DNA of 64,000 bases from a phage. Below, one piece after another: positions 21,986 to 39,465 of the stretch. The translations under genes and the position numbers were made by a program. Positions within the stretch are counted from its first letter, which is position 1. Each line of letters opens with the position of its first letter. The stretch is taken from assembly GCA_036253035.1 (NCBI GenBank), contig GCA_036253035.1_4123.1, one strand, 5' to 3'. The notes beneath the pieces were generated by a model. It searched no databases. It worked only from the letters and a program-made list of their open reading frames with translations, and was not told the origin of the DNA.

Positions 21986-22270
21986 TTTGTATTCCTCTTT
22001 GTGGTTGATGTAAGTATTATACTCGTTTAATTTCTATTGTCAAACTATTTTATCAGGGGAGGTTTTCGTATGTCTTACTCCTGGACTACTTAACGGGGTT
22101 ACTTATTTCGTTCCCCGTCCTGATGTAAAACATTATACTTGATTCTAAGTACAATGCAAGTACTTTTTAAAAATAGTTTTCAGTACTTGATAGTACTAGC
22201 CACCAGCATATAATAGATACATTTATGCACCCTGTGGGTTAGATTGTTTCTATGCATATATAATAGCAAA

Positions 22271-23644: not shown

Positions 23645-24001
23645 CTAGGATAAAATCATTATAGGATATTCACAGTTAATCAGTACTTCAAAACCAAAAC
23701 TTTCATACCATTCTTTAAGATTAAACTCGTTATCTTCTCCCGTATCGCATTCTAAGATGATACAATCTGAATCATCGGCGGCATCAATAAAGGCATTCAT
23801 TAATTCAGTACCTTCACCGTTACCGCGATTATCGGGATCAACATAAAGAGAATCAATAAACGCTACACGATCATAATCAAGATCCGGTGCAACAATGCCA
23901 CGTTTAACAAACCAGTACTGCAATTGTGCTACTTTGCCTTGTACTTGATAGCCAGTGATCTCACCATTGTCTGTAGTACGCGTGATATGTTGTATACCCA
24001 T
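23645..24001 (-). CDS. putative GNAT-family N-acetyltransferase
   Basis: Motif-A-like SLYVDPDNRGNGEGTELMNAFIDAA; TTGACA-N16-TATAAT upstream. Confidence 0.5.
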   Translation of the reverse strand: MGIQHITRTTDNGEITGYQVQGKVAQLQYWFVKRGIVAPDLDYDRVAFIDSLYVDPDNRGNGEGTELMNAFIDAADDSDCIILECDTGEDNEFNLKEWYESFGFEVLINCEYPIMILS

Positions 24002-24064
24002 GATTTCAATCCTCAGTTAAGATATAAAATATTATACACTAACTAACAGCACTGTCAATACTTT

Positions 24065-24322
24065 TTATCTCATAGATCTATGCCAACAATTACGGGGATT
24101 GCGTTTGAATATGCTATCATGATCAGCCTGGCAAGTGATGCAGTACTTACACCCCTTAACGGCCAGGCGGCGATTCTCAGGGATTTTATCGCCGCAGTCG
24201 AGGCAATGTATCAGTGATTCTATTTGTGCGTTAATTTGCGTTCTAGCGTGGTTTACAGCGGCCTGAATCACTGCGTTAATCTCGTCTTGCTCGGCCCCGT
24301 CCTTCGCGAATCCAACAGCCAT
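24065..24322 (-). CDS. DksA/TraR-family C4 zinc finger protein
   Basis: CLDCGDKIPENRRLAVKGCKYCITCQ = C-x2-C-x17-C-x2-C with IP..RR signature. Confidence 0.65.
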   Translation of the reverse strand: MAVGFAKDGAEQDEINAVIQAAVNHARTQINAQIESLIHCLDCGDKIPENRRLAVKGCKYCITCQADHDSIFKRNPRNCWHRSMR

Positions 24323-24485
24323 TATTTTAACCTCATTATAAAAATACTATAGTACTGTAATGCTACAATAATACTACTAGTACTGATTTTATTCAAACCG
24401 TATGATACTACATATTCCCCAGCATTACCACGAATGGTAACGCCTTTGTACTTTCTATATAATTTCAACTACGTTTATTGCCTTT

Positions 24486-24556
24486 GATCAAGATTTGATC
24501 AGAATTATACGCCTTATGCTAAATTGATCCAGTACTTTTTTGATCATTTATTGATC
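24486..24556. promoter_or_regulatory. GATC cluster (5 sites in 71 bp) in long 5' leader
   Basis: GATC at 24486, 24497, 24526, 24542, 24553; two embedded in TGATCA palindromes. Confidence 0.5.
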
Positions 24557-24618
24557 GATATTATATAGTTACATTTGTGCACCCTATGGGTTAGTGACGT
24601 TCTCGTCTTGATGTAAGT

Positions 24619-24647
24619 ATTATGCCAGTACTGGCATAATTTGTCAA
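24619..24647 (-). promoter_or_regulatory. sigma70-like promoter (TTGACA-N17-CATAAT)
   Basis: -35 at 24642-24647, -10 at 24619-24624; leader contains conserved dyad ACCCATAGGGTGC. Confidence 0.5.
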
Positions 24648-24651
24648 TAGA

Positions 24652-24849
24652 TTATTTTAACTTTTTTCTGTCATTGATTAATGCTTTCAGTACTATACTA
24701 ATGATCTGCAATGATTCATCAATGACTATAAAATTATTTTCTTTCATTAGATGATAGTTACCATTGATTGTATATTCTAAGGAGTACTGTTTACGTTTAA
24801 TTTTTGATAATGTTTCTATTTGTTTTTGTACTGATTTCATGCTAATCAT
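24652..24849 (-). CDS. hypothetical protein (66 aa)
   Basis: Start moved to ATG of MISMKSVQ. Confidence 0.45.
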   Translation of the reverse strand: MISMKSVQKQIETLSKIKRKQYSLEYTINGNYHLMKENNFIVIDESLQIISIVLKALINDRKKLK

Positions 24850-24943
24850 TGTTAAACGTCCTGTAACGCATTCTAACGAGTTAAACGGTTTAGTACTGGC
24901 TAAAGGATTAAAGCCCACCAGCGTTAACCAGTGGGCTATAATC

Positions 24944-25087
24944 TTACATCTTGCGGATAATCTTAACAGTATCTTTCACCGATTTACCGTCTTGCTGACA
25001 TTGTTCGATCATCGCGTATTGTTCTGCGGTCAGATCCTCGCCAGTTTTTGCCAGTACTGCGTCGATGAATGAATCCAGTGCGATCAT
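24944..25087 (-). CDS. hypothetical small protein (47 aa, below track cutoff)
   Basis: Manually translated MIALDSFIDAVLAKTGEDL...; AGAGAG RBS; TTGACA-N16-TATAAT upstream. Confidence 0.4.
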   Translation of the reverse strand: MIALDSFIDAVLAKTGEDLTAEQYAMIEQCQQDGKSVKDTVKIIRKM

Positions 25088-25186
25088 TTTGTTTCTCTCT
25101 TAGGTTAAGTTAACTACTGTTTATAAAACTTATTATACAGTACTATCAAACTATGTCAATATCTTTAATAGTACTGGTAATATATT

Positions 25187-25366
25187 TTAGCGGTAGTCGT
25201 CGTATGCTTTATTCACCTGGCGAATGTAACTTTCAAAGGCTTCGTCTACCGTTTCATACTCCCGAACATAATCACCATAGGAAACTACATACATCCCTTT
25301 TTGATCTTCAAACGTCATGATGATAGAATCCAGGCCGATGATTTCAGTTTTTGCGATAATAGCCAT
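25187..25366 (-). CDS. hypothetical small protein (59 aa, below track cutoff)
   Basis: Manually translated MAIIAKTEIIGLDSII...; AAGGAA RBS; promoter upstream. Confidence 0.45.
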   Translation of the reverse strand: MAIIAKTEIIGLDSIIMTFEDQKGMYVVSYGDYVREYETVDEAFESYIRQVNKAYDDYR

Positions 25367-25449
25367 TTTAGTATTCCTTAGTAGTGTAGTTGATAAAAGT
25401 TATTATGCCAGTACTATCAATCATTGTCAATAGTACTGTGATAATATTT

Positions 25450-25662
25450 TTAGTTAATGATAGTCAGTGTAAAATTGTAATCCCCTGCCTGGTATAGTAC
25501 TTTGTCGCCGAATGTACCAACACGTTTCATATTGCAATAGATACCCATAACACTTTTTACATCTTTGATATTCCGAACGCCTGTGATATCCTTGTTGAAA
25601 TTTTCATGATCAGAAAATAAAACTTGTTTTGCATTTTTCAGTACAGTGCAGATATTAGCCAT
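25450..25662 (-). CDS. hypothetical protein (70 aa)
   Basis: ATG with AGAGAG RBS; 5' hairpin GGGGAGAACTATTCTCCCC; TTGACA-N16-TATAAT. Confidence 0.6.
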   Translation of the reverse strand: MANICTVLKNAKQVLFSDHENFNKDITGVRNIKDVKSVMGIYCNMKRVGTFGDKVLYQAGDYNFTLTIIN

Positions 25663-25755
25663 TTTGATTTCTCTCTGTTTGTGGGGAGAACTATTCTCCC
25701 CTTGATGTAACTTATTATACAGTACTATAATCTATTGTCAAACTATTTTTTAATA

Positions 25756-26097
25756 TTATTCAAAATCTTCTGGACCGGACTGATAATCATCTTCACCGTA
25801 TGCACTTTCTAACTTCTCGCCAGTGTGATCATCAGTTAGTGAGTCATCCTCATAGTTCACGTCTACGCCTACAATGTAAAACTGGCTATCGTCTGGATCA
25901 TTGAAATTAATTTTCTGAATGTTTACAATAACGGTATTGATGCCCAGGACACCGCCATCAGCAGTTACAAAGTACTGATATTTTTCACAACCGCCTGAAT
26001 TGAAACCGTAATTAATTTCGGCCCGACCATCATTTAAACGCAGTGCCTGGGCGATGATTTCATTTTCAAAGTTAGATTGAGCAATTGAGATAGTCAT
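25756..26097 (-). CDS. hypothetical protein with strongly acidic C-terminal tail
   Basis: C-terminus rich in D/E (DDDSLTDDHTGEKLESAYGEDDYQSGPEDFE); ATG with AAGGAAA RBS; hairpin. Confidence 0.6.
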   Translation of the reverse strand: MTISIAQSNFENEIIAQALRLNDGRAEINYGFNSGGCEKYQYFVTADGGVLGINTVIVNIQKINFNDPDDSQFYIVGVDVNYEDDSLTDDHTGEKLESAYGEDDYQSGPEDFE

Positions 26098-26281
26098 GAT
26101 TTGTTTCCTTATTACCAGGGGAAACCGTTTCCCCTTTCGATGTAAAACATTATACGCTTATTGAGATAGTTTGCAAGTACTTTTTAAAAATAGTTTTCAG
26201 TACTCAAACATTATATAATAGATACACTTATGCACCCTGTGGGCTAGTGAGCTATCTCTCAATGAATATATAATAGCAAAA

Positions 26282-26309
26282 TGGCTGACCGGAGTCAACC
26301 ACTTTTTTC
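26282..26309. terminator. intrinsic terminator hairpin (element family variant)
   Basis: GGCTGACCGGAGTCAACC + T6. Confidence 0.45.
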
Positions 26310-26537
26310 ATTTATTTTTAGCTTTTAGAATCGCCGCCTTTCGCGTCATGCCTTGCTTGATGTATTCCTGTACTTTCGCTTTACGTGCATTCGCTTTATT
26401 TGCTTTCGTAAACGCCGAACAACTTTTATAATTTAAGCCTGTTGGATTCATTTAAATCACCATAAAGAATAGATAGGTTACTAACAATGCCGCGATCAAT
26501 GCACCGACCAGGGCCGAACTATAGTAAGCTAATGATT

Positions 26538-26690
26538 TCATTTTTTAGCCTGAAAGTAATGTTTAATTTGTGCGGCGGTCAGTGCACAATTACGCAGGAA
26601 GTTTTCTGTATAACTGCGGCGAGTACTGAAAGAGAATTGACCTTTGCCGTTACCGATAGTAACATCAAACCGAGCGTTGTATTGTTTCAT
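26538..26690 (-). CDS. hypothetical small protein (50 aa)
   Basis: Start moved to ATG of MKQYNARF with AGGAGA RBS; track extension runs through hairpin. Confidence 0.5.
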   Translation of the reverse strand: MKQYNARFDVTIGNGKGQFSFSTRRSYTENFLRNCALTAAQIKHYFQAKK

Positions 26691-26776
26691 TTTGATTCTC
26701 CTGTTATTGGGGAGAACCATTTCTCCCCTCTATGTAAAACATTATACGCGTTTAAAAACTAATTGCAAGTATTATT

Positions 26777-27028
26777 TTAAACTTTGTATTTTAAACTTTG
26801 TGCGACTAATTTCGCACGGTCAATCATATTCTGCCATTTTTGGATCTCTTCTGGTAGAAAACGATATTCACCAATTACAATAGTGATACACTGGTCAGCC
26901 TTGTCGATGTATGTGGTATCAATCTCTACTTGAACGGGTACACGTTCGCCGTACTCAGTCCCTGGGATAATGCAATCATTATCATAAGTTACAGTAGTAG
27001 CAGTGTCTTTGATTAAAATTGTTTCCAT
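26777..27028 (-). CDS. hypothetical protein (83 aa)
   Basis: ATG with GAGGAAAG RBS; 5' hairpin AGGGGAACGTTTTCCCCT. Confidence 0.6.
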   Translation of the reverse strand: METILIKDTATTVTYDNDCIIPGTEYGERVPVQVEIDTTYIDKADQCITIVIGEYRFLPEEIQKWQNMIDRAKLVAQSLKYKV

Positions 27029-27110
27029 TATACTTTCCTCGTTAGGTGTAAGGGGAACGTTTTCCCCTTCATGTAAACTATTATACAGTACTAAAAACTA
27101 ATTGCAAGTA

Positions 27111-27257
27111 CTATTTTTTAGATTTACGCAAACTTTCTACCATCTCAGGAGTAAGGCCAGGCGGGTAGGAAACCACTTCATCAACGAAACGTAAAGGGAA
27201 TACCCCAGCGAAAGGTGAACGTGCTTTCTTAGTATTACTCTTTTTTGATGCTTTCAT
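27111..27257 (-). CDS. hypothetical basic small protein (48 aa, below track cutoff)
   Basis: Manually translated MKASKKSNTKKARSPF...; hairpin and TTGCAA-type promoter upstream. Confidence 0.45.
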   Translation of the reverse strand: MKASKKSNTKKARSPFAGVFPLRFVDEVVSYPPGLTPEMVESLRKSKK

Positions 27258-27326
27258 TTCATATTCCTTAATTAGTGGGGAGAATCATTTCTCCCCTTCA
27301 TGTAAAACATTATACGCGTTTAAAAA

Positions 27327-27536
27327 CTAATTGCAAGTACTATTTGAAAGTAAATGCTCATACGCTGCATTAACTACGTTTTCAATAACCGACTGTACAG
27401 AAAGATCCCCCACGTCCTGGCTATAGTAGAAATCGCTTACAGTGGTGTCATCGTATGCAAATACTTTACCAGGTACTGCATCAATCACATACATATTAAC
27501 CTTTAAGATGTCGATCTTATCCTGTACAGTAAGCAT
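27327..27536 (-). CDS. hypothetical protein (69 aa)
   Basis: ATG with AAAGGT RBS, adjacent to upstream stop. Confidence 0.5.
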   Translation of the reverse strand: MLTVQDKIDILKVNMYVIDAVPGKVFAYDDTTVSDFYYSQDVGDLSVQSVIENVVNAAYEHLLSNSTCN

Positions 27537-27541
27537 ATTAA

Positions 27542-27814
27542 TTAACCTTTTAAGTACTGGCTTAAGTAGTCTTGTTGATCTTCGGTGATTGCAGCCATCT
27601 TCCCTAGTACTGGATTGATGATATAATCCCCTGTAACGTCCTGTAACGCATTCTCAGGCGGTTTAACGGCTGGGGTAGCCATAGCCATTGCCTGGACTTG
27701 TTCGACGCTGTAACGCTCATAAAGGCGGCATTCTTCCGGTGTTAACATAGCATCAGTACGCTTCATCGGTTTAATGATGCTTTCGATCTCATTCAGTACT
27801 TGATTAACGTTCAT
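27542..27814 (-). CDS. hypothetical protein (90 aa)
   Basis: ATG with GGGGA RBS. Confidence 0.55.
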   Translation of the reverse strand: MNVNQVLNEIESIIKPMKRTDAMLTPEECRLYERYSVEQVQAMAMATPAVKPPENALQDVTGDYIINPVLGKMAAITEDQQDYLSQYLKG

Positions 27815-27865
27815 GGTATAATCCCCAATATAAGCGGCCTAAATCGACCGCTAACGATGTTTTGA

Positions 27866-28135
27866 TTAATAGGTGTATGGTTGACGCTCAAACAATGATT
27901 GCACGTTGTACGCCCCGCTAATGGGCTTTGCTGGCAAATCAATTTTATATTGTTCACGCTTAAAAATAATAAAACGGCAATTGTTTTTAACATCAAAATT
28001 GATTGAACGTTCCAATAGCTTTCCTTCGTGTACAAATACAAGATAACCGCTTGCTACTTGTTTTGTAGTACTGGTTGCAACCATTGACCGACGAACATGA
28101 GTACCTGCATCGATTAAAGTACTGATATTTTTCAT
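27866..28135 (-). CDS. hypothetical protein (89 aa)
   Basis: ATG with AGAGGA RBS; preferred over overlapping alternate-frame 27811..28041. Confidence 0.55.
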   Translation of the reverse strand: MKNISTLIDAGTHVRRSMVATSTTKQVASGYLVFVHEGKLLERSINFDVKNNCRFIIFKREQYKIDLPAKPISGAYNVQSLFERQPYTY

Positions 28136-28215
28136 TTTACTATCCTCTTAATTTGATTTAATTTCTTTCCCCTATGCAGACACTATATCAAAGTATCTGC
28201 ATAAAGTAAAGCTAA

Positions 28216-28560
28216 TTAAAGATCTTTTTTGCGTTTAACATCAGTTACCGAACTGTAAACAGTGATATTATTGTCACGGCAAAAACGGGAAAGATAAGAA
28301 CCGCGTAAAAACTCTTTATCTTCCATATTAATAACCTTGCTAAATTCTTCCATTGCTACAGTGTCAAAGTGATCCCCGTATCCATATTGGAACGGCACGT
28401 TTACTACTTCAATAAAATTACCATCAATTTCTACGTCTACACTTAAAGAGAAATAAGTGTTACCATATGAAGCCTGGAACCAACGCCGAGCGGCAATATG
28501 TACAACTTCAACAGAAGACAGGTTGATATTTTGTGCTGAGATAGTGTTGATGTTAGCCAT
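28216..28560 (-). CDS. hypothetical protein; paralog of 21009..21332
   Basis: Shared GNTY(H/F)S, YGYG, DVKRKKD; AGAGGAAA RBS; TTGACA-N17-CATAAT. Confidence 0.65.
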   Translation of the reverse strand: MANINTISAQNINLSSVEVVHIAARRWFQASYGNTYFSLSVDVEIDGNFIEVVNVPFQYGYGDHFDTVAMEEFSKVINMEDKEFLRGSYLSRFCRDNNITVYSSVTDVKRKKDL

Positions 28561-28641
28561 TTTAATTTCCTCTTAGTTGTCTTGATAAAATCTATTATGC
28601 CAGTACTATCAATCTATGTCAATAGTACTGTGATAATAATT

Positions 28642-28854
28642 TTACTTACTTTGCTTTGATGCTTTATGTTGTGCAACTGCCATCACTACATCAGTACGAA
28701 CAAAGTTAGCAACCGTATCAGTATAATATTTGATTGCATCGTCAATATCTGCGAACATCCGATACATTCCGCACCATGATACTTTATAACCCGCTTTCAC
28801 TTGTTCAAGTTTAACCAGTGAATTGTTTACTTTGATTTTTGTAATGATAGCCAT
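28642..28854 (-). CDS. hypothetical protein (70 aa)
   Basis: ATG with AGAGGAAA RBS; promoter/UTR is ~85-bp direct duplicate of the one upstream of 28216..28560. Confidence 0.6.
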   Translation of the reverse strand: MAIITKIKVNNSLVKLEQVKAGYKVSWCGMYRMFADIDDAIKYYTDTVANFVRTDVVMAVAQHKASKQSK

Positions 28855-28936
28855 TTTCTTTTTCCTCTTAGTTGTCTTGATAAAATCTATTATGCCAGTA
28901 CTATCAATCTATGTCAATAGTACTGTGATAATAATT

Positions 28937-29080
28937 TTACTTACTTTTTGCTTTCTTTACAGCTTCCACCTGGTCGGCCCACTCTTTACCCCATACTTGA
29001 GCGTTATAGTGATACTGACAAAGAGCAACGCCCCGTTTCAAACCAGTGATAGATTTTTTACCACATTGACAAGTTTTCAT
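28937..29080 (-). CDS. hypothetical Cys-containing small protein (47 aa, below track cutoff)
   Basis: Manually translated MKTCQCGKKSITGLKRGVALCQYHYN...; 5' hairpin and promoter upstream. Confidence 0.45.
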   Translation of the reverse strand: MKTCQCGKKSITGLKRGVALCQYHYNAQVWGKEWADQVEAVKKAKSK

Positions 29081-29166
29081 TTTTAGTTTCCTCTTAGTGG
29101 GGAGAATCATTTCTCCCCTTGATGTAATGTATTATACTTTATCTGATTTACTTTGCAAGTACTTTT

Positions 29167-29394
29167 TTAATTTAATTCATCCAGGCAAAGGATACGATCT
29201 ACACCTAAATCAGTTAAGCTAATAGACGGCACTTGATAGGTTTCAATGTATTCTACACTAGCCCACTGACCGAACTCATTCACCGCCCAGGTATTCATTG
29301 CAAAATGTAATTCCGCACCTTTCTTATTAGTAATTACAGCAACAGTGCTAGAAGTGCCAGTAGTGCCAGATACGTAAGTAATGATGATAGCCAT
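29167..29394 (-). CDS. hypothetical protein (75 aa)
   Basis: ATG with AGAAGGA RBS; TTGACA-N16-TATAAT. Confidence 0.6.
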   Translation of the reverse strand: MAIIITYVSGTTGTSSTVAVITNKKGAELHFAMNTWAVNEFGQWASVEYIETYQVPSISLTDLGVDRILCLDELN

Positions 29395-29463
29395 TTTTTA
29401 AATCCTTCTCAGTAGTTGATGTAAAATATTATACAGTACTTAAAACTATTGTCAAACTATTTT

Positions 29464-29616
29464 TTAAAGACTATCTACGATAGCTGCCGTTTCAATAATA
29501 GACTTACCTTTTTTTGAACATGCAATAACTGCTTTAAATTCCTTTGATGACCAATCTTTCTTGCTGCATACTGACATTACTTGTAACGTGAAACAATCCA
29601 GTTCATAAGTATTCAT
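29464..29616 (-). CDS. hypothetical small protein (50 aa, below track cutoff)
   Basis: Manually translated MNTYELDCFTLQVMSVCSKK...; GAGGA RBS; TTGCAC-N16-TATAAT. Confidence 0.45.
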   Translation of the reverse strand: MNTYELDCFTLQVMSVCSKKDWSSKEFKAVIACSKKGKSIIETAAIVDSL

Positions 29617-29848
29617 CTTTAAATCCTCAGTTAGTTAAGGTGTCTTGCCTTGATGTAACTAATTATACGCCTTTCTCTTAATCGTGCAAGTACTTTTTAT
29701 TACTTTTTGCAAAATACTTTAAACGCTCTCAATCGCATTCTAACGGCCTTAACTCCACCAGCTAGGGCGATGCATCAGATAATCAGTTTAATGCGTTAGA
29801 ATCGATTCTATGAGGTGCTGACGGCATGGAATACTATAGACACAAAAA

Positions 29849-29869
29849 AGCCCACTGTATAAGTGGGCT
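29849..29869 (-). terminator. rho-independent terminator (minus strand)
   Basis: AGCCCACTTATACAGTGGGCT followed on minus strand by U6; downstream of gene 29891..30373. Confidence 0.65.
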
Positions 29870-29890
29870 AGTGATTCAGTACTTTAAATG

Positions 29891-30373
29891 TTATGCTTCA
29901 ATTTTGCGGTGAGATTCGATCCATTCCTCGCGAGTCATACCGCTTTCTTTGATTGCATCCAGTACTACCGCAATGCAGTTACCGCGTACAGGAATCAAAT
30001 GTTCTTCCCCGTTATCAAGGACAACAGTAACACGTTCTTGAATCCATTTTTTAGGCTTAGATTCCGGCTTATCTTCACCGTACTTAACCGCCAGGGCTTT
30101 ATGTGCCATTTCAATAACCACTTCCAGATCTAAACCAGACACCGCCGCCTGAATACTTTCTATTGTTGCTTGCAGTTCTGCTTCACGGGCTTTTTTCTGT
30201 TCTTCCAGTTCTGCTACCTTTTTGGCTTGTAGTTCTTTCGCTTCACTGTAAGCAATGTTAAAATTGTTGCGTACTGCTTTCATGGTATCATTATCCAGGT
30301 CAGCCAGCAATTCAGCAGCAATAACAGTATCGTTAGAAATCAGTGCTTTCAGAAATGATTTTACATTAGCCAT
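29891..30373 (-). CDS. hypothetical coiled-coil-rich protein (160 aa)
   Basis: Start moved to ATG of MANVKSFL with GAGGA RBS; long conserved leader upstream. Confidence 0.6.
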   Translation of the reverse strand: MANVKSFLKALISNDTVIAAELLADLDNDTMKAVRNNFNIAYSEAKELQAKKVAELEEQKKAREAELQATIESIQAAVSGLDLEVVIEMAHKALAVKYGEDKPESKPKKWIQERVTVVLDNGEEHLIPVRGNCIAVVLDAIKESGMTREEWIESHRKIEA

Positions 30374-30574
30374 TTTATAAATCCTCAATTAAAGTTTAAG
30401 TTAGTTTATCAAAGTTTGTTTGACGTGTCCAGTTTTTCATTCGACTTACTGGCGGTCTACTTAATGTTCCCCGTCTTGATGTAATACATTCTACGCTTTT
30501 CCCTGGTAATGTCAACTACTTTTTTAAAACTATTTTCAAAGTATACCAGTACTACGATACTACAAAAACAAAAA

Positions 30575-30595
30575 AGCCCACTGTATAAGTGGGCT
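30575..30595 (-). terminator. rho-independent terminator (minus strand)
   Basis: Identical hairpin to 29849 copy, U-run on minus strand; downstream of gene 30613..30912. Confidence 0.65.
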
Positions 30596-30612
30596 AGTGA
30601 TTCAGTACTATA

Positions 30613-30912
30613 TTATAAACAATTAATTACGCCAGTGAATGTAACTTTCTCTGTATCCATTACAGTGACAGAACCGCGTTTACTTTTTGCATCGTAATAG
30701 ATGGTCGTGCTACCCTGATCATCTTCTTCATGGTACGGGCCATTAGCAAACATTGCAGGGGCCAGTTCCAGGGATTTGGTAACGATCTCAGCCGTTTCCT
30801 CGTTAGTCATTGCAACAGTGCACTGAATGAATTTTTCTTTCGGTACATCAACGGAAGCGTTAACAGCGAAAGAGGAAACAGATAAAGCCAGGGCGATGAT
30901 TGCAGTTTTCAT
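30613..30912 (-). CDS. putative secreted/periplasmic protein with N-terminal signal peptide
   Basis: MKTAIIALALSVSSFAVNA = basic n-region, hydrophobic core, AxA-like cleavage site; TTGATA-N16-TATAAT. Confidence 0.6.
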   Translation of the reverse strand: MKTAIIALALSVSSFAVNASVDVPKEKFIQCTVAMTNEETAEIVTKSLELAPAMFANGPYHEEDDQGSTTIYYDAKSKRGSVTVMDTEKVTFTGVINCL

Positions 30913-31024
30913 TTGTATATCCTTTGTTAGTACTAGGGAGTATTCCCGATTAGATGTAAAACATTATACGCATTTAAAAACTATTATCAAGTACTTTAAT
31001 ATAAAAGTATTTGAAAAAAAAGTC

Positions 31025-31053
31025 TTGACAACTGCATCCAGTACTGGCATAAT
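31025..31053 (+). promoter_or_regulatory. plus-strand sigma70-like promoter (TTGACA-N17-CATAAT)
   Basis: -35 at 31025-31030, -10 at 31048-31053; downstream transcript would carry dyad ACCCACAGGGTGC and end at hairpin 31134-31151. Confidence 0.5.
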
Positions 31054-31059
31054 ACTTAC

Positions 31060-31160
31060 ATAAAGACGAGATAGTCACTAACCCACAGGGTGCATAGATC
31101 CGTCTATTAAATGATTCAGTACTGCAAAATAAAGGGGATCGTTTGATCCCCTCTGTATTA
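31060..31160 (+). ncRNA. candidate small non-coding RNA (~100 nt)
   Basis: Region between plus-strand promoter and hairpin/U-rich tract; no ORF; contains family dyad motif. Confidence 0.3.
31134..31151. terminator. bidirectional terminator hairpin
   Basis: GGGGATCGTTTGATCCCC flanked by A/T-rich tracts on both sides; downstream of minus gene 31158..31379. Confidence 0.5.
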
Positions 31161-31379
31161 CTTAGTAAGATATAAACAAAAATCACCTTTCTTTGCTACG
31201 CCGCCAGTGTAACGCGATGAATAGTTAGAAACGTCTTGCACTTCTGCAATGACGAGCGTATCATCATTTATTTCGTCGCAAAAACATACTGCGGGATCTT
31301 CTACGCCAATATTGTCAGCATGTGCCCGCATAGATTTAACCAGTGCTTCAAGCTGGGAAAGAGTAGTGATATTAGCCAT
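31158..31379 (-). CDS. hypothetical protein (73 aa)
   Basis: ATG with AAGGAG RBS; hairpin; TTGCAA-N16-TATAAT. Confidence 0.6.
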   Translation of the reverse strand: MANITTLSQLEALVKSMRAHADNIGVEDPAVCFCDEINDDTLVIAEVQDVSNYSSRYTGGVAKKGDFCLYLTK

Positions 31380-31466
31380 TGTAAAACTCCTTATTAGTGG
31401 GGAGAACCATTTCTCCCCTTGATGTAAACTATTATACAGTACTGGAAACTAATTGCAAGTACTTTT

Positions 31467-31670
31467 TTAATTTAATTGCTTTAAAACATAATCAAAGACA
31501 CCACGCACATCATTGATCATCGCCTGGCGGTTAGCAGGTAACGCATCAGGATCGCCACTATCCCAGGCATTAATGAAGCCACCTAAATCATGGAATACTT
31601 TATTCCGTAACCCGATCAACTGCAATTCTTTTTCTTCAAGCTCTTTGATACGTTTAATTAAATCACTCAT
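31467..31670 (-). CDS. hypothetical protein (67 aa)
   Basis: Start moved to ATG of MSDLIKRI with GAGGA RBS. Confidence 0.55.
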   Translation of the reverse strand: MSDLIKRIKELEEKELQLIGLRNKVFHDLGGFINAWDSGDPDALPANRQAMINDVRGVFDYVLKQLN

Positions 31671-31687
31671 TAGATAATCCTCAGTAC

Positions 31688-31972
31688 TCAATTGTAAGAT
31701 CCGCAACGGTCGCAGTAGTGCCCGTCCTCGTCATCTTCTACCACTTGCCCGATGAAATGATCTACTTTCGCTTTCAGGTTATTATAATCGTTTTCTACTT
31801 CCTTTAAACGCTTCTGGTAGTATTCCAGTGCTTTAAGATATGCCGCATCAGTAGTTTTCTCCTGCATAGCTAAATTCATGCCACGCGTTTCATCGTACAG
31901 CCAAAAACCATCGGTGCACTCACTTATAGACAATGACTTGCTTAACACATTGTACTTTATTACTTTACTCAT
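31688..31972 (-). CDS. hypothetical protein with C-terminal CxxC (94 aa)
   Basis: ATG with GAGGA RBS; ends ...HYCDRCGSYN. Confidence 0.6.
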   Translation of the reverse strand: MSKVIKYNVLSKSLSISECTDGFWLYDETRGMNLAMQEKTTDAAYLKALEYYQKRLKEVENDYNNLKAKVDHFIGQVVEDDEDGHYCDRCGSYN

Positions 31973-32057
31973 TAGATAATCCTCAGTAAAGGCGGGAACT
32001 ATTCCCGCTCTCGATATAAAGTATTATACGTTAATCTAATTACTTTGCAAGTACTTT

Positions 32058-32294
32058 TTAGTGCTTTTTATAAAACATCTCAGCGGTGATATTTTTACCC
32101 GTTGGTTGTACTTTATCCAGGATCTTTTGGTGTGCACTACGCCCGAAAGAATAAGAACCGTAAACCGTTAGCCAGTAGTCGCCATTTTGGTTTACATGTA
32201 CCGCACAATAGGGAACGCCCCGCGAATCGTCACCAATGAAGTGTGATACTGTACCCGTTACGTTTGGTGTTGTAGTTTTGATTTGTTCGATCAT
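32058..32294 (-). CDS. hypothetical protein (78 aa)
   Basis: Start moved to ATG of MIEQIKTT with AGGAG RBS. Confidence 0.55.
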   Translation of the reverse strand: MIEQIKTTTPNVTGTVSHFIGDDSRGVPYCAVHVNQNGDYWLTVYGSYSFGRSAHQKILDKVQPTGKNITAEMFYKKH

Positions 32295-32352
32295 TTCTCT
32301 TACTCCTGGGATATAGGCGGGAACCATTCCCCGCCATTGATTCAGTACTGAA

Positions 32353-32964
32353 TTAATATGCGATAGATTCTACTACATCGTCGATAACGTTAAATTGATA
32401 TTCGTTACCCTCGATCAGTGCTACAATGTTTTCAGTAGTAAACTGGTCTTCATAAGCATTTTCTAAATCACGGTACAGCTTACAAGATAATTCTCGGATA
32501 GTATCAGTCAGTAAGTTTTCCAGATCCTCAGCTAATGCAGCCTGTTTTACAGTTAAATCAGTGTAGCGAGTATCAACGCAACCGCCTACCGTGTTTTCGT
32601 GTGCATAACGCGATTGGGAACGTTCTACACTCATTTCCAAATCATCTTCGTTCAACAGGTGACGGATGGAACGATATTTCGTTAACGCCTTAACCTTGCG
32701 TAAAAACTTCTCAGCGTCAACGTGGTCAGTACTGATTGATGCACCGTCACCTTGCGACCAAAAACCACTGTATTGCAATTCAGCTTCATCTATGCCGTAT
32801 TCTGGTAGTACTGTTTCTTTATAGTATTCCAGTACTGATTCAGCAAAGAAATTATCCTCACTTGCACGTTCCCGATCCCGAACCAGTTCGATAGCCGCCG
32901 TTTGTTGTTCTGCGTTCAGTTCAGAAAAAGCCATAACAAAAGTAGTAGTAGTGATAGTTTTCAT
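32353..32964 (-). CDS. hypothetical acidic protein (203 aa)
   Basis: Start moved to ATG of MKTITTTT with GAGGGT RBS; D/E-rich; conserved long leader upstream. Confidence 0.6.
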   Translation of the reverse strand: MKTITTTTFVMAFSELNAEQQTAAIELVRDRERASEDNFFAESVLEYYKETVLPEYGIDEAELQYSGFWSQGDGASISTDHVDAEKFLRKVKALTKYRSIRHLLNEDDLEMSVERSQSRYAHENTVGGCVDTRYTDLTVKQAALAEDLENLLTDTIRELSCKLYRDLENAYEDQFTTENIVALIEGNEYQFNVIDDVVESIAY

Positions 32965-33263
32965 TTTGTAACCCTCATTCATTAGTTGATGTAAGTATTA
33001 TACGCTTTTACTTTCTATTGTCAAACTATTTTATCAGGGGAGTTTTTCATACGTCTTACTCCTGGACTACTTAACAGGGAGTTACTTATTTCATTCCCCG
33101 TCCTGATGTAAAACATTATACGCCTTTAAACATAGTTTGCAAGTACTTTTTGAAAATAGTTTTTAGTACTTTCCTATAGATACACTCCCGCACCCTATGG
33201 GCTATCGCCTTGTGTCCGGCTTGTAAGTATTATCTCACTAAGCCGGATAACGGTCAAGTACTT

Positions 33264-33530
33264 TTATTCAAGTACTGCAATCTTTTTAGTACTGTACACT
33301 GTAACGCGGTTGCCCTTGCGGTCGTGCTTTATTTCTACCACGCGACGCGATACACTATCAGGACGCTTTAAAGCAGATAGCCAGTACTGAATTGATCGGG
33401 CTGTACTTTGCTTTACTACGGCCCAACGTTTACCACGTTCAGATTGTACGCCCATATCTTTAAACGTCGCCCCGTCCTGGCGTGCGGCAATCCGAGCAAG
33501 TTCACGCGTTGCAAAGTATATAATATTCAT
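33264..33530 (-). CDS. hypothetical protein; paralog of 20514..20909
   Basis: Start moved to ATG of MNIIYFATREL; shares FATRE..ATFKDMG..HDRKGNRVTVYS. Confidence 0.6.
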   Translation of the reverse strand: MNIIYFATRELARIAARQDGATFKDMGVQSERGKRWAVVKQSTARSIQYWLSALKRPDSVSRRVVEIKHDRKGNRVTVYSTKKIAVLE

Positions 33531-33612
33531 GCTGTTACCCCTATCGTTGTTGTATAAAAGAAATCTATTATAAAGTACTATCACCGTGCAATAGTACTTT
33601 TAATCTATTCTC

Positions 33613-33852
33613 TTACATTCCAACCATCGCCGCACGGATCGCAGTAGTGCTATACTTAAAGCCGTCCGGTGTTTTATCTTGTCCAGTCTGTTCTAAAAAT
33701 AGCATCATATGACGGGCCGCATCATTACGATTAGTGTTAGCGGCAATAAAGTCCTGGGCCAACCGGTATAATGATTCGTCGTTATTAATCCAAAGGCTTA
33801 CATTCCATTGAGTTTTGTTTTTGTGACCTAAGAACATTTTTGATTTAGCCAT
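33613..33852 (-). CDS. hypothetical protein (79 aa)
   Basis: Start moved to ATG of MAKSKMFLG with AGAGGA RBS. Confidence 0.55.
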   Translation of the reverse strand: MAKSKMFLGHKNKTQWNVSLWINNDESLYRLAQDFIAANTNRNDAARHMMLFLEQTGQDKTPDGFKYSTTAIRAAMVGM

Positions 33853-33945
33853 TTTTTTAATCCTCTTATATAGTGGGGAACTATTCCCCACCTGATGTAA
33901 AACATTATACGCTTTTAAACTTAGTTTGCAAGTACTTTATTAAAC

Positions 33946-34308
33946 TTATTCGTAAATCTTTCCACTATCAGCCCATACCAGGAAACGAGGCATATTATCC
34001 CATGCATCTTGTTTTAAGTTTAAGCCGTGCAATACTTCTGTACTTTCCATTCCTGGTACTGGCTTGCTATACACTGCAAACATTTCGCCCATGTACTGAT
34101 AAGCCATCGTTAAATCAGTCTGGATCATCTTATGTATCATTGCGTCCAGCATTGCAGTAGCTGCATACTGTTCACGCTTAAGCGGTAACATTGCAATCAA
34201 TTCCCGATAAGCTGCAATGTGAATCCGTACAGTCTCAGCGGGAAGATCTTTCATCTCTTCACGGAAAGAAACCAGGTTAAGCATGATAGTATTGATTTGA
34301 GTCGCCAT
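33946..34308 (-). CDS. hypothetical protein (120 aa); first gene of early minus-strand block
   Basis: ATG with AAGAGA RBS; hairpin CGGGAGCGTATCCCCCG; TTGCAA-N16-TAGAAT. Confidence 0.6.
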   Translation of the reverse strand: MATQINTIMLNLVSFREEMKDLPAETVRIHIAAYRELIAMLPLKREQYAATAMLDAMIHKMIQTDLTMAYQYMGEMFAVYSKPVPGMESTEVLHGLNLKQDAWDNMPRFLVWADSGKIYE

Positions 34309-34618
34309 CGTTTTAATCTCTTTTAAAAGTGAGTCGGGAGCGTATCCCCCGTCTCGATGTAAAACATTCTACACCTTTCCCAATACTTTGCAAGTACTTT
34401 CTACAAATACTTTTAAAATAGTTTTCTTTCTATATAGGGGAACTATCTTTCAGTACTGAATCAACCAAATCACTACTATACACCCCATAAAACGGCCTCA
34501 GCCGCTTTCTAACGCATTAATACACCTAAGCTATACATTTGCACCGCCACCAGCTAACCAGGGCTTTACGGGCCGTTTAAACGCGTTAAATTATTTTCAA
34601 TTATTTTGTTTTTAGCTA

Positions 34619-34646
34619 TTGACTCAGCACCGAAAAAGCGTATAAT
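34619..34646 (+). promoter_or_regulatory. plus-strand sigma70-like promoter (TTGACT-N16-TATAAT)
   Basis: -35 at 34619-34624, -10 at 34641-34646; reads into non-coding hub carrying family leader motifs. Confidence 0.5.
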
Positions 34647-35086
34647 TACTACATAGACGCGAGAAAGCGGATACCCCTGGGGGGTGCGGAATTACGCCCA
34701 AAATTCATATAATTTAAAAAGGATACACTCCCGCACCTTAGCAGGTCATAGCACTTTCTCAGTACTGAATAATAGTATCATAGTACGCCCCAGGATGGCA
34801 AGCAAATTAATTAAAACTTTTTGCGTTTAGGGTATTGCTTTATTTTTTCAGTACTGCTATAATATTTTCATCAAGTCGAGAAAGACTCAAGCCCACCGGG
34901 TGCATAGTTACGCCCAAAATTCAGTACTGAAAAAAATTTTAAAAATATCCGTCCAGGCCGTTGACATTGCCCCCAGTTTATAAGATAATGATTCCAGATT
35001 CAGAAAAATCTAACTCCAGATACTGCGGGGAAACTATCCCCACGCGGTAGGGGAACTATTGGAAAAAACAAAATAAAATTTTGATT

Positions 35087-35200
35087 TAGCCGTCTATACT
35101 TCCAGACGTGTAACCATCTAGCCGTTTAGCCGTCCAAACGTCTAGCCATCCAGCCATCCAGAAATCTAGCCGTCTAGCCGTCTAGATGGATAGCCATCTT
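35087..35200. repeat. iteron-like direct repeats, ~10 copies of TAGCC(G/A)TC
   Basis: ttagccgtctat / ctagccgtttagccgtcc / tctagccatccagccatccag / ctagccgtctagccgtctagatggatagccatc. Confidence 0.6.
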
Positions 35201-36051
35201 TACTTCCAGACTTCTGGAGGGCTAGACATATCTACGTCCAAAATCCATCCAGGGTAACTACGCCCAAAATCCGTCAGTACTATACCATAGATCTATCTTG
35301 TGAAAGGAGTATTCAGTACTGCCATCATAGCCCTCACTATGTTACCCTAGGAGGATGAAGACTATCATGTAGTACTGAATACTGTTAGAGGGAATCCACC
35401 AGCACAAGCTGGTGGCATAATGCTTTAGATTAAAATCAGTACTGACACCATTCTGTTAATATCAGTACTGTTATTACGATTTTCATATGAGGTTCAAAAA
35501 GATGTACCACCACAGGAGGAACTATCTTTTCTGTACTGTCTCACGACAGGAGGTAGAGTAAATGAATTGTTGGCAGCAACTCATCTCTCTATGTAGAACA
35601 TTATACAGTACTGAATCATAATGTCAATAACTTTCTTTCATTATTCAGTACTGATATTCTTGAGAACTACCCGTCTACAAACATCATTATATCCCACAAA
35701 TCATAAACGTCCCAACGTAAATTTCAACTTTCGAAGATCCAACTTTTATTTCATAGGTACTCCAAAATTTTTAGGATCGAGATTTAGGATGGAGTACTAA
35801 CCAACTTTTTGCTGGAGCCTCAAGGGGTAATGGAATTTTACCCCGAAGGGTAAAAGGGTAATTGTAATTAAGGTGAAAGTAATAATTCAGTACTAATCAT
35901 TGCGTGATTACTTTTGATTACATTTGATGTAATTTGCAAAATGGAAAAGGAGCTTGGAAACTACAAAGTACGGCAGACTTCCTCTGCCTACTTAGTGGCA
36001 TATCAGTACTGCTACGTTCTTGATTAAACGTGAACATTCCTGTACTCTAGT

Positions 36052-36140
36052 ACTCACTACTGATCACTACTGATCACTACAGTGATTATAAATGATTACT
36101 TAAATGTTTATATATGATTACTTATGACTACCTATGATTA
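36052..36140. repeat. short tandem direct repeats (CACTACTGAT x3; ATGATTAC x3)
   Basis: ctcactactgatcactactgatcactacagtgattataaatgattacttaaatgtttatatatgattacttatgactacctatgattac. Confidence 0.55.
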
Positions 36141-36255
36141 CGGGGTTTAGCCTGGGGAGAATCCTAGTGATCGCATTTGTCCAGGCTGAATTTTAACAAT
36201 TCGCCTGTACATAAAGGTTGTTCACTAGGAGCTTCCCCTGTCTACTTGTGTTTAA

Positions 36256-36447
36256 TTACTTCCTATATATAAGCATTAAGATATAGTAGTACTGATTATA
36301 CTGTACATTCTCTTTAATATTATAAGGGTCTATAGCAATCTCGGTACATCTGTTAAATGCATATCTATTAAATGCCAGTGGAATTATAGATCTAATCCAT
36401 ACTTGTTCATTTTCTTTTAGTTTACTTATATAGAAGTTTTTATACAT
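36256..36447 (-). CDS. MHKEYY-family small protein
   Basis: MYKNFYISKL...ILMLIYRK; last gene of tandem array. Confidence 0.55.
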   Translation of the reverse strand: MYKNFYISKLKENEQVWIRSIIPLAFNRYAFNRCTEIAIDPYNIKENVQYNQYYYILMLIYRK

Positions 36448-36462
36448 AGTATTCTCTATTAA

Positions 36463-36645
36463 TTAATATGATAGTACTAGTGTTAGTACTGAGCACAATT
36501 GTTCTTTATAGTTCTTAGGGTATATAGAATCTTTTATGCACTCATTGAAGTGCCATAGGTATAATCTTGGGTCGCATTCTTTATATATTCTTACGGGGAC
36601 GAATGTTAGTTTTCTTATATAGAATTCTTTATGTTCTTTATTCAT
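36463..36645 (-). CDS. MHKEYY-family small protein
   Basis: MNKEHKEFYIRKL... Confidence 0.55.
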   Translation of the reverse strand: MNKEHKEFYIRKLTFVPVRIYKECDPRLYLWHFNECIKDSIYPKNYKEQLCSVLTLVLSY

Positions 36646-36650
36646 ATTAG

Positions 36651-36836
36651 TTAGTGTCTGTATATAAGTAATAGTAAGAATACGTACTGCACATCTTCAT
36701 CTTTAGTATTGAGTACTGTACGTATTGCGTCATTAAACAAGAATATAGTACTTGGGTCATGAGAATTTAAAGGGGTTCTGGGTACGGCATGTTTGTAGTT
36801 CCCTTTAACAAATTGTGTGTAGTATTCTCTATGCAT
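36651..36836 (-). CDS. MHKEYY-family small protein
   Basis: MHREYYTQFVKGNYKH...LLLLIYRH. Confidence 0.6.
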   Translation of the reverse strand: MHREYYTQFVKGNYKHAVPRTPLNSHDPSTIFLFNDAIRTVLNTKDEDVQYVFLLLLIYRH

Positions 36837-36837
36837 A

Positions 36838-37023
36838 TTAGTACCTATATATTAGGGCGAGAATGTAGTACAATTCATATGGAATGTAATTTGGGGTGAT
36901 CGCACACTGTGTATGGTAAATGAATTGTTCGGTATTTTTCTTATCCTTGATATCTATTGGGATTAGTGGTATAAGCATTTGGGAGTTTAGATCCAGATGG
37001 CTTAAGTAGAATTCTTTATGCAT
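36838..37023 (-). CDS. MHKEYY-family small protein
   Basis: MHKEFYLSHL...ILALIYRY. Confidence 0.6.
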   Translation of the reverse strand: MHKEFYLSHLDLNSQMLIPLIPIDIKDKKNTEQFIYHTQCAITPNYIPYELYYILALIYRY

Positions 37024-37032
37024 ATTGTTCTC

Positions 37033-37221
37033 TTAGAATACGAAAGCTAGGTACAGGGTATGATACAGTACTCGATGATAGCTGTCAAAATCTAGTATAC
37101 ATGCTTTAGTGCACATAGTAAAATACACTTTATCATTTTGTGCATTGATACCGCGAGGTTTATCTAATAGATTAGTTCTGAGGTACATTGGGAAATATTT
37201 TGTGTAGTATTCTTTATGCAT
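37033..37221 (-). CDS. MHKEYY-family small protein
   Basis: Start moved to ATG of MHKEYYTKYFPMYL abutting upstream stop. Confidence 0.55.
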   Translation of the reverse strand: MHKEYYTKYFPMYLRTNLLDKPRGINAQNDKVYFTMCTKACILDFDSYHRVLYHTLYLAFVF

Positions 37222-37222
37222 G

Positions 37223-37405
37223 TTAGTACCTGAATATAAGTAGGATAGTGTTATATAGCTGGTCATAACTACTACTATTTTCTATACTTCGTTCTATGCA
37301 GTTATTGAATCCCAGTACTGCCAAATCGTTATCCAGGGGGACTTTGTATCTGGCGTAGTGTTCAAAAATGCTGGGGAGAAATTGTGTGTAGTATTCTTTG
37401 TGCAT
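37223..37405 (-). CDS. MHKEYY-family small protein
   Basis: MHKEYYTQFLPSIFEHY...ILLIFRY. Confidence 0.6.
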   Translation of the reverse strand: MHKEYYTQFLPSIFEHYARYKVPLDNDLAVLGFNNCIERSIENSSSYDQLYNTILLIFRY

Positions 37406-37406
37406 A

Positions 37407-37592
37407 TTAGTACCTATATATTAGTAAAAGGATGTGATACAGTACTCGATTATAGTCTTCAATATATATCGAGGATTTAGTGCACTGAATGAAGTAGTCT
37501 TTTTCGTAGTTTTTTTCTATACCCAATGGTTCTGTTGGTACAAGGTGTTGGAGATACATTGGGAGTTTCTCTATGTAGTATTCTTTATACAT
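37407..37592 (-). CDS. MHKEYY-family small protein
   Basis: MYKEYYIEKLPMYLQHLVPTEPLGI...LLLIYRY. Confidence 0.6.
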   Translation of the reverse strand: MYKEYYIEKLPMYLQHLVPTEPLGIEKNYEKDYFIQCTKSSIYIEDYNRVLYHILLLIYRY

Positions 37593-37593
37593 G

Positions 37594-38440: not shown

Positions 38441-38450
38441 TTGGTTTCCT

Positions 38451-38630: not shown

Positions 38631-38638
38631 AGTATTCC

Positions 38639-38821: not shown

Positions 38822-38829
38822 TTTCTTCC

Positions 38830-39464: not shown

Positions 39465-39465
39465 A

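Follow-up and report, generated by a model that had tools for sequence, protein, structure and literature searches.

Three copies of a structured RNA element lie on the minus strand of a 64,000-nucleotide (nt) stretch of phage DNA (GenBank assembly GCA_036253035.1, contig GCA_036253035.1_4123.1), referred to here as the window, and each copy begins at the predicted +1 of an early transcript. Comparative sequence analysis indicates that the copies represent a discrete RNA domain of 60-75 nt that is structured, specific to phages, and located at transcript 5' ends. Together with its relatives in other phages, the element (hereafter the motif) constitutes, as far as sequence comparison can define one, an undescribed, widespread and phage-specific RNA family, whose best-studied carrier is the leader transcribed from promoter A1 of phage T7.

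A preliminary description of the window had noted a conserved leader of about 70 nt behind three promoters, and this leader is real. When the 64 kb are searched with a covariance model of the core, precisely three copies emerge, all of them minus-strand and with scores of 52-55 bits; the next match scores 8 bits. The core-model matches are located at 22095-22054, 30466-30425, and 33076-33035, and the full elements at 22124-22052 (copy 1), 30480-30408 (copy 2), and 33107-33033 (copy 3). The 54-nt sequence quoted in that description has a single exact occurrence (22125-22072, minus strand; 0 expected by chance). Upstream of each copy is a strong σ70 early promoter of the form TTGCAx/TTGACA-16-TATAAT/TAGAAT, and the copy begins 7 nt after it. 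Copies 1 and 3 are 92% identical and have both flanking promoters in common; copy 2 reaches no more than about 65% identity when aligned naively and is without one hairpin (P2), yet it has the 43-nt core in common with the others. The genes behind the three copies are indeed unrelated, as had been stated: they belong to three different PHROG families (7744, 27871, and 5162) and contain no Pfam domain. Every feature of the family is found in all three window copies: UAAGUAG, a GNC/GN'C pseudoknot, a stem P3 with the loop AAGNCNNAYGAAAA, a closing helix, and a host-type early promoter directly upstream.

Fold and covariation

In the deduced fold, the first bases of the transcript pair with the 3' end of the domain, creating the closing helix P1. 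Downstream come P2, an optional hairpin that is the counterpart of the simple 5' hairpin seen after most other early promoters of the window; the invariant, single-stranded UAAGUAG; and P3, a variable stem of 4-6 base pairs (bp) whose conserved loop of 14-17 nt reads (U)AAG-N-C-R-N-A-Y-GAAAA. The G-N-C that follows directly after UAAGUA pairs with G-N'-C in the P3 loop, giving a 3-bp pseudoknot. On this evidence from aligned sequences, the core is an H-type pseudoknot with an A-rich third loop.

The internal complementarity that the preliminary description had reported is present, though the folding energies of the single sequences are unremarkable (z -0.4 to -2.2). Compensatory changes between the copies are also present, in P3, in the pseudoknot, and at P1 pair 5-86, when copy 2 is compared with copies 1 and 3. 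The structural support, however, comes from comparison with relatives rather than from the three copies alone. In an alignment of 27 distinct cores from at least five phage lineages (A1), 89.5% of the P3 cells are paired, versus 36-44% when the partner strand is slid, and compensatory flips occur at three pairs (CG/GC, CG/GC/UA, and UA/AU). When P3 and GNC/GN'C are taken jointly, 92.6% of cells are paired, versus 25-41% when slid. The middle pair of the pseudoknot is AU in 18 cores, CG in 4, UA in 4, and mismatched in 1, while the flanking G-C and C-G pairs are invariant. These positions had been left free in the search pattern, and RNAalifold predicts the same pseudoknot pairing unaided. In Enterobacter phage Entb_48 the second pseudoknot pair is also compensatory (GCU/AGC).

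A second alignment (A2), of 17 T7-like sequences, contains four helices: a small hairpin, the pairing of this hairpin's loop with the tail that follows P3, the pseudoknot, and P3. Here 92.3% of cells are paired, versus 17-38% when slid, and double-sided changes are seen at 11 pairs, compared with 2.6 in shuffled alignments; none of 500 shuffles reaches 11. The wobble pairs in A2 are strand-specific (nine G.U versus one A.C), and therefore it is the sense RNA, not the DNA, that carries the selected structure.

The closing helix recurs with differing sequences. In T7-like phages it lies at fixed positions, as GUCAA/UUGAC, GUCGGU/ACCGAC, GUCAUC/GAUGAC, and GAUUAG/CUAAUC, with GUCAC/GUGAC in a further contig. 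Elsewhere it is AUCAGG/CCUGAU in window copies 1 and 3, AUCAA/UUGAU plus GACG/CGUC in window copy 2, AUCAAGAC/GUCUUGGU in Entb_48, GUCAAG/CUUGAC in Aeromonas phage HJG, ACCGAA/UUCGGU in LIMEzero, and GCGGC/GUCGC in the jumbo contig L060. An independent test is provided by Erwinia phage Hallingskeid, Pantoea phage LIMEzero, Salmonella phage 7t3, HJG, and Entb_48, which had no part in model building and were not picked out by the search pattern. These five score 33-53 bits, and each has P3, the pseudoknot, and a closure of 4-8 bp of differing sequence. Taken together, the comparisons leave the structure well supported. The preliminary description had left the choice between a leader peptide and a structured RNA; it is the structured RNA, with a closed junction, a pseudoknot, and strong covariation, that stands, and not the leader peptide.

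Distribution among phages and the T7 A1 leader

The version of the motif found in jumbo, rV5-like, and phi92-like phages is present in about 54 records, and the T7 version in 502, with one copy per genome and almost always without annotation. As a unit of about 80 nt with 87-100% identity, the motif occurs in single copy in some Stephanstirmvirinae (muut, EmilieFrey, outra) and some Vequintavirinae (A7_1, A5-4, A73, W70), where the flanking promoters and genes differ. Pattern scans and BLAST locate the T7 version in T3-like phages and in Autographiviridae that infect Yersinia, Klebsiella, Salmonella, Serratia, Citrobacter, and Aeromonas; Pantoea LIMEzero, Enterobacter Entb_48, and Aeromonas HJG are further carriers. 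Among Rak2-like jumbo phages it is carried by Salmonella 7t3, Munch, and PHA46, by Erwinia Hallingskeid, and by two metagenomic jumbo contigs. Wherever it occurs, the motif opens an early unit, lies in the sense orientation, and closely follows a host-type promoter. With start sites placed by analogy with T7 A1, P1 is predicted to begin at +1 in most lineages, the window copies included.

In T7 the motif occupies nt 536-593, between the annotated and mapped promoters A1 (498), which is used by E. coli RNA polymerase, and A2 (626); this is +39 to +96 of the transcript from A1, and the motif ends at the -35 element of A2. The A1 leader (nt 498-625), which is untranslated, has UAAGUAG, a GAC/GUC pseudoknot, a P3 of GCCUG/CAGGU, the same loop (AUAAGUCGCACGAAAAA), and a closing helix. 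It also has in common with the window copies the promoter architecture and the +1 'AUC', and the two are homologous by sequence and structure. In particular, the copy 1 promoter has the same hexamers, spacing, and 7-nt discriminator as the mapped T7 A1 promoter. In the T7 leader, by contrast, a separate 5' hairpin comes first and the domain begins only at +39, and a boxA is located downstream. T7-like phages in general differ in the closing helix, the 5' strand of which lies in the loop of the small extra hairpin, so that a second pseudoknot is formed. A search of the literature found no function assigned to T7 nt 536-593.

An exact boxA (GCTCTTTAACAA, usually ..AATCTGG) is located 24-382 nt past the motif in about 28 of 40 Autographiviridae instances, comprising T7-like, LIMEzero-like, and Aeromonas phage leaders (for example, at L039 4110-4190, L085 397-500, L086 398-480, and, in T7, L018 431-450). 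An exact boxA is also seen in the terminal repeat of Proteus phage Stubb. In the window, four matches to boxA with two mismatches were found versus 3.4 expected, none of them near the copies.

Searches against known RNA families and host genomes

No description of the motif was found in the literature searched. The 4227 models of Rfam 15, with riboswitches, ribozymes, c4, and phage leaders among them, gave nothing over the motif at E <= 1 in 16-36.5 kb of the window, and with 301 nt around copy 1 and the T7, Pkp-1, A7_1, and muut loci they returned only noise (E 0.25-9, far below gathering scores). Sub-threshold matches to Rfam Trp_leader in the region correspond to the two terminators that flank copy 2 and not to the motif. 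When 5,426 E. coli genomes were searched by BLAST with the element, nothing similar was found. In 185,579 bacterial and archaeal genomes, one per species, the search pattern occurred 18 times. Just one of these sites, on a contig of a T3-like phage, has both P3 and the pseudoknot; the remaining 17 lack a stem comparable to P3, reaching 4 bp at best. Scans of metagenomes and a first scan of IMG/VR with the strict type-A pattern yielded nothing new. Mimicry of a host sequence was considered and is excluded by the lack of similarity in the E. coli BLAST search and the genome pattern scan.

A resemblance to rRNA, rrn leaders, and tmRNA (of the GUCGCA..ACGAAAA type) had first been spotted by eye. 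The motif model finds no match in the rrnH leader. Its best match in the rrnH operon falls in 16S rRNA (L194 939-978, about nt 868-907; CGUUAAGUCGACCGCCU..), with 11.7 bits and an E of about 0.009 in 5.5 kb. Only a linear stretch of 17 nt (about nt 868-884) is involved, and the implied pairing differs from that of native 16S rRNA. Copy 2 agrees with the 16S sequence UUAAGUnGACCGCC at 14 of 16 positions. However, P3 strands of the T7 type (GCCUG) and of the jumbo type (GGAGU) occupy the same columns and therefore are not both homologous to 16S rRNA; the likeness is probably due to chance.

A proposed cis-acting role

The position of the motif at operon starts, its sense orientation, its lack of a terminator of its own, the nearby boxA in T7-like phages, and the use of copy 2 as the sole 5' untranslated region (5'UTR) of a gene all favor a role in cis. 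With moderate confidence, we suggest that the motif is a 5' leader domain that acts in cis, conceals the 5' end of the transcript, and docks a conserved host factor. The RNA would fold co-transcriptionally while RNA polymerase clears the first 90 nt or so, with P2 forming first, the pseudoknot and P3 next, and P1 last. P1 would then bury the 5'-triphosphate end and so shield it from RppH and from 5'-end-dependent decay by RNase E. In E. coli RNA decay, a paired 5' end hinders both RppH and the 5'-end-dependent attack of RNase E. The invariant nucleotides of the junction and loop, held in place by the pseudoknot, would present a docking surface for a component that is conserved across gamma-proteobacterial hosts. 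Candidate partners are elongating RNA polymerase with the Nus/Rho machinery, or another RNA-binding protein, and the effect may be a higher yield of the first phage transcripts. Such a partner is implied because a plain hairpin suffices for 5' protection, yet the junction and loop nucleotides are invariant in phages of hosts from E. coli to Aeromonas.

Several known systems share parts of this design. The put RNAs of phage HK022 are likewise phage RNAs of about 70 nt located just past early promoters, and put itself acts on the host RNA polymerase without a phage protein. The put RNAs are, however, described as two stem-loops, whereas the motif is a closed junction with an H-type pseudoknot; a search of HK022 nt 24000-40751 with model R1 and filters off gave a best score of only 6.6 bits, and similarity to put RNA was not found. 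Read-through of intrinsic terminators in the manner of put is also unlikely, given that a strong terminator closes the copy 2 unit and that, in purified systems, A1 transcripts stop at the terminator TE. Lambda nut and the rrn boxB-boxA-boxC array resemble the leaders of many Autographiviridae, in which boxA (GCUCUUUAACAA) is close to a hairpin whose large loop is rich in A; they differ from the window and from all myovirus versions of the motif, which are without boxA, and no N-like protein is implied. The 5' stabilizing stem-loops of the ompA type are matched by the pairing of +1 to +6 in P1, which leaves no single-stranded 5' end. Such stabilizers need only a helix, however, whereas the motif has a pseudoknot and unpaired nucleotides that do not vary, and its T7 version lies away from the 5' end.

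A number of points weigh against the proposed cis-acting role. Every functional step is inferred. Only three of the 28 early promoters of the window are followed by the motif, and a second promoter after it (copies 1 and 3, T7) gives motif-free transcripts, so that it is not required in cis for the downstream genes. Ordinary early leaders already have a hairpin, and consequently protection of the 5' end would by itself leave the invariant nucleotides unexplained. A strong intrinsic terminator 560 nt downstream ends the copy 2 unit, and the window lacks a boxA. Purified E. coli RNA polymerase terminates A1 transcripts at the T7 terminator TE, which speaks against the proposal in its put-like form. 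Furthermore, the pseudoknot is just 3 bp long, and the P1 helices are short and singly not significant (p = 0.007-0.68); in the alignments, P1 is supported by covariation in fixed columns and by recurrence rather than by sequence-by-sequence tests. The motif could yet perform a known kind of function, such as stabilization of the leader or protection from Rho.

Alternative explanations

The main rival, possible but rather unlikely, is that the motif acts in trans, as a decoy or sponge, with the upstream promoter serving mainly to mass-produce, during the opening minutes of infection, a small folded RNA. This RNA, whether kept on the mRNA or cut off it, would sequester or inhibit a component of the host, for example an RNase, an RNA chaperone, or an RNA-sensing defense protein, or bind a small signaling molecule, and the gene would be served by the next promoter. 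The tandem arrangement of promoter, motif, promoter, and gene, which copies 1 and 3 share with T7 and with rV5-like and phi92-like phages, is consistent with such a use, as is the movement of the discrete unit of about 80 nt between unrelated phage families at 87-100% identity without its downstream gene. The distribution within Vequintavirinae and Stephanstirmvirinae is patchy, like that of accessory or counter-defense functions; the unpaired nucleotides are invariant over hosts from E. coli to Aeromonas; and P1 is followed by single-stranded, A/U-rich sequence. On the other hand, nowhere is the motif followed by a terminator of its own, a discrete 3' end cannot be made out, and copy 2 is the sole 5'UTR of its gene. 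The lack of similarity to host sequences means that the RNA is not a sequence mimic, and the loop has no complementary target in the window besides the opposite strand of the element itself.

It is improbable that the pseudoknot core is a riboswitch-like aptamer through which a metabolite or nucleotide signal tunes early expression. Covarying stems, an invariant junction and loop, a compact H-type pseudoknot with an A-rich loop, and a place in the 5' leader are all traits of small aptamers. However, there is no expression platform: no terminator is present, no ribosome-binding site is sequestered by P1 or P3, and the next element is a promoter or boxA. In addition, nothing in Rfam 15 matches, even with the threshold at E <= 10, and no alternative pairing is conserved across lineages.

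Less credible again is a neutral passenger, that is, a scar or spacer that rides with mobile early-promoter cassettes through recombination between the repeated promoters. The early region does consist of about 28 repeated promoter cassettes, copies 1 and 3 have both flanking promoters in common, identical terminators surround copy 2, and the downstream gene order varies between phages. A precedent for such shuffling is given by the PeSL cassettes of T4-type phages, in which an early promoter is joined to a stem-loop that serves as a terminator (PMC4122927). Like the window, these have repeated strong early promoters between small open reading frames (ORFs), a plastic early region, and apparent gene shuffling (PMC2839356, PMC4122927). 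The stem-loops of the window differ in that they lie downstream of +1 and have no U-tract, and the motif is a conserved pseudoknot domain. Moreover, four covarying helices and the invariant unpaired nucleotides persist across lineages even though the flanking promoters and leaders have diverged beyond recognition, and one copy per genome has been kept in 502 T7-like records. Covariation is not expected of a neutral spacer.

The chance of a DNA-level element, such as an operator or a single-stranded DNA signal, or of a self-cleaving ribozyme is very slight. Inverted repeats adjoin the promoters, and the conserved core is of ribozyme-like size; against this, wobble pairs occur on the sense strand only, a 60-75-nt structure with a pseudoknot is unlike an operator, and no Rfam ribozyme family matches. 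We also know of no report of self-cleavage in decades of in vitro transcription from T7 A1 on native templates, which counts against a ribozyme.

Least credible of all is a leader-peptide attenuator, in which translation of a 9-14-codon ORF beginning MKN would control the structure downstream. Copies 2 and 3 do have the ATG that had been reported for two of the three, copy 1 does not, and copy 3 has the spacing AGGAG-N7-ATG. The AGGAG that had been read as resembling a Shine-Dalgarno sequence is instead the 5' strand of P3 and covaries as such: in copy 2 AGGAG becomes CCAGU while the partner strand ACUCC becomes ACUGG, and elsewhere the strand reads GCCUG, GCUUG, or other sequences, with compensating changes in its partner. 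When Y is U in the conserved loop A-Y-G-AAAAAC, an ATG arises and the loop spells MKN, and this explains the shared 'MKN' of the two copies. Other versions read ACG at this place: the orthologue of copy 3 in 121Q, those of copy 2 in PBECO4 and two other contigs, all rV5-like and phi92-like and most T7-like versions, and most of the 27 distinct cores. The ATG is thus missing from copy 1, from the 121Q and PBECO4 orthologues of copies 3 and 2, and from nearly all other members, and the peptides are not conserved past the loop-encoded MKN. Element lengths among close relatives are 72, 74, 75, and 76 nt, and therefore coding is excluded. No terminator or antiterminator was found between the motif and the next promoter or gene. 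The trp and his attenuators are similar only in having a short ORF-like stretch in the 5' leader, here in two of three copies; they differ from the motif, which has no conserved ORF, no regulatory codons, and no terminator/antiterminator pair. From these comparisons, the apparent Shine-Dalgarno sequence and MKN mini-ORF are by-products of the P3 strand and the loop sequence.

In some records, deposited coding sequences (CDSs) for a 'hypothetical protein' span the motif (for example, L004 1210-1608), sometimes on the opposite strand. Because of the covariation and of insertions and deletions that are not multiples of three, such CDS calls are probably spurious.

Implications

T7 promoter A1 and its leader have been a model system for transcription for fifty years. 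The presence of a conserved double-pseudoknot domain in this leader was unexpected, as was the presence of the same domain at the 5' ends of early transcripts of jumbo, rV5-like, and phi92-like phages, with nucleotides that are invariant from E. coli to Aeromonas phages. These observations point to an RNA-only interaction with the host that is needed in the first minutes of infection. Somewhat short of the confidence given to the cis-acting leader domain, we propose tentatively that a single unrecognized pseudoknot RNA is an early tool common to at least four unrelated groups of virulent phages (T7-, rV5-, and phi92-like phages and Rak2-like jumbo phages), which is produced from the strongest early promoters, captures a conserved host component, serves as an RNA-only device for host takeover or counter-defense, and has been exchanged horizontally as a module of about 80 nt. 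The host component would be the machinery of transcription elongation and termination, or an RNA-binding or defense factor. For RNA annotation the motif represents a new family, since more than 550 phage genomes carry it either unannotated or under spurious 'hypothetical protein' calls. It also has a bearing on the engineering of phage early expression.

Organization of the three copies and of the early region

All features described in this paragraph and the next are on the minus strand. The promoter upstream of copy 1 (22132..22159) has a -35 element, TTGCAT, at 22159-22154, a 16-nt spacer, and a -10 element, TATAAT, at 22137-22132; its activity is predicted by analogy with T7 A1, and its putative +1 is the A at 22124. 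Copy 1 itself (22052..22124, 73 nt, core model 55.1 bits) consists of P1 (AUCAGG/CCUGAU, 22124-22119/22057-22052), P2 (ACGGGG/CCCCGU, 22118-22113/22098-22093), UAAGUAG (22092-22086), the pseudoknot (GUC 22086-22084 with GAC 22074-22072), and P3 (GGAG 22081-22078 with CUCC 22061-22058). Right after it, a second promoter (22016..22043, TTGACA-16-TATAAT) is positioned to drive a 66-residue gene (21985-21785), and the leader that this promoter provides is short and unstructured. Copy 3 (33033..33107, 75 nt, 52.2 bits) is arranged in the same way, with an upstream promoter at 33115..33142 (TTGCAA-16-TATAAT; predicted +1 at 33107), P1 at 33107-33102/33038-33033, P2 at 33101-33095/33080-33074 (ACGGGGA/UCCCUGU, with one G.U pair), UAAGUAG at 33073-33067, the pseudoknot between GUC 33067-33065 and GAC 33055-33053, and P3 between GGAGU 33062-33058 and ACUCC 33043-33039. 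A second promoter directly after it (32997..33024, TTGACA-16-TATAAT) would drive a 209-residue gene (32982-32353).

Copy 2 (30408..30480, 73 nt, without P2, 52.2 bits) is preceded by a promoter at 30488..30515 (TTGACA-16-TAGAAT; predicted +1 at 30480). Its closing helix has two parts, P1a (AUCAA 30480-30476 with UUGAU 30412-30408) and P1b (GACG 30475-30472 with CGUC 30425-30422), which enclose UAAGUAG (30463-30457), the pseudoknot (GAC 30457-30455 with GUC 30445-30443), and P3 (CCAGU 30452-30448 with ACUGG 30433-30429). It is the sole 5'UTR of a 160-residue gene (30373-29891). An intrinsic terminator, AGCCCAC..GUGGGCU followed by a U-tract, lies upstream of the unit at 30575..30595, and an identical terminator closes it at 29849..29869. 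Bracketed in this way, the promoter, motif, and 160-residue gene resemble an insulated and possibly mobile cassette.

The region of the window that contains the copies matches the Escherichia jumbo phages vB_EcoM_phAPEC6 and 121Q (genus Asteriusvirus, about 350 kb) at 99-100% identity; in related records the early region forms part of the direct terminal repeat. Between 16455 and 35627 the minus strand has 28 near-identical σ70 early promoters (TTGCAA/TTGACA, 16 nt, TATAAT), each with a predicted +1 'AUC...' 7 nt past it; both promoter and initial transcribed sequence are similar to those of T7 A1 (AUCGAGAGGG...). About 21 of the 28 are followed by a plain, G-rich 5' hairpin from about +6 (for example, GGGGAGAA-AUGG-UUCUCCCC), then by a ribosome-binding site and a small gene. 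The stems of these ordinary hairpins also covary (GGGGAGAA/UUCUCCCC, GUGGGGAA/UUCCCCAC, GCGGGAA/UUCCCGC, and others).

The early region contains other repeats as well. Four minus-strand copies of another non-coding repeat, about 110 nt long, are located at 22310-22200, 26320-26210, 19290-19180, and 17362-17230, each directly upstream of an early promoter. The repeat opens with a 12-bp hairpin, AAAGGGAUUGACUCCGGUCAGUCCCUUU, which overlaps a promoter-like TTGACT-17-TATTAT, and continues ..CCCACAGGGUGCA..UAUCUAUUAUAU; two of the four copies contain a Chi sequence (GCTGGTGG). An 87-nt repeat, 100% identical at 28566-28652 and 28861-28947, carries another promoter type (TTGACA-17-CATAAT, extended TG), and more divergent copies lie at 25374 and 17911. 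Close to the upstream end of the early region, at 35091-35242, there is an array of 8-bp tandem repeats (CGTCTAGC / CATCCAGC-like), which comparison with records that include terminal repeats places about 1.2 kb from the probable left genome end. Finally, the plus strand at 39950-55000 contains a tandem series of about 14 paralogous genes, which measure about 1.2 kb apiece and have individual promoters (..GTATTAAATATAGTATAATG..). The N-terminus of their products is MLPFGRMIKYGNI, and both of the paralogues tested are RCC1-repeat beta-propeller proteins.

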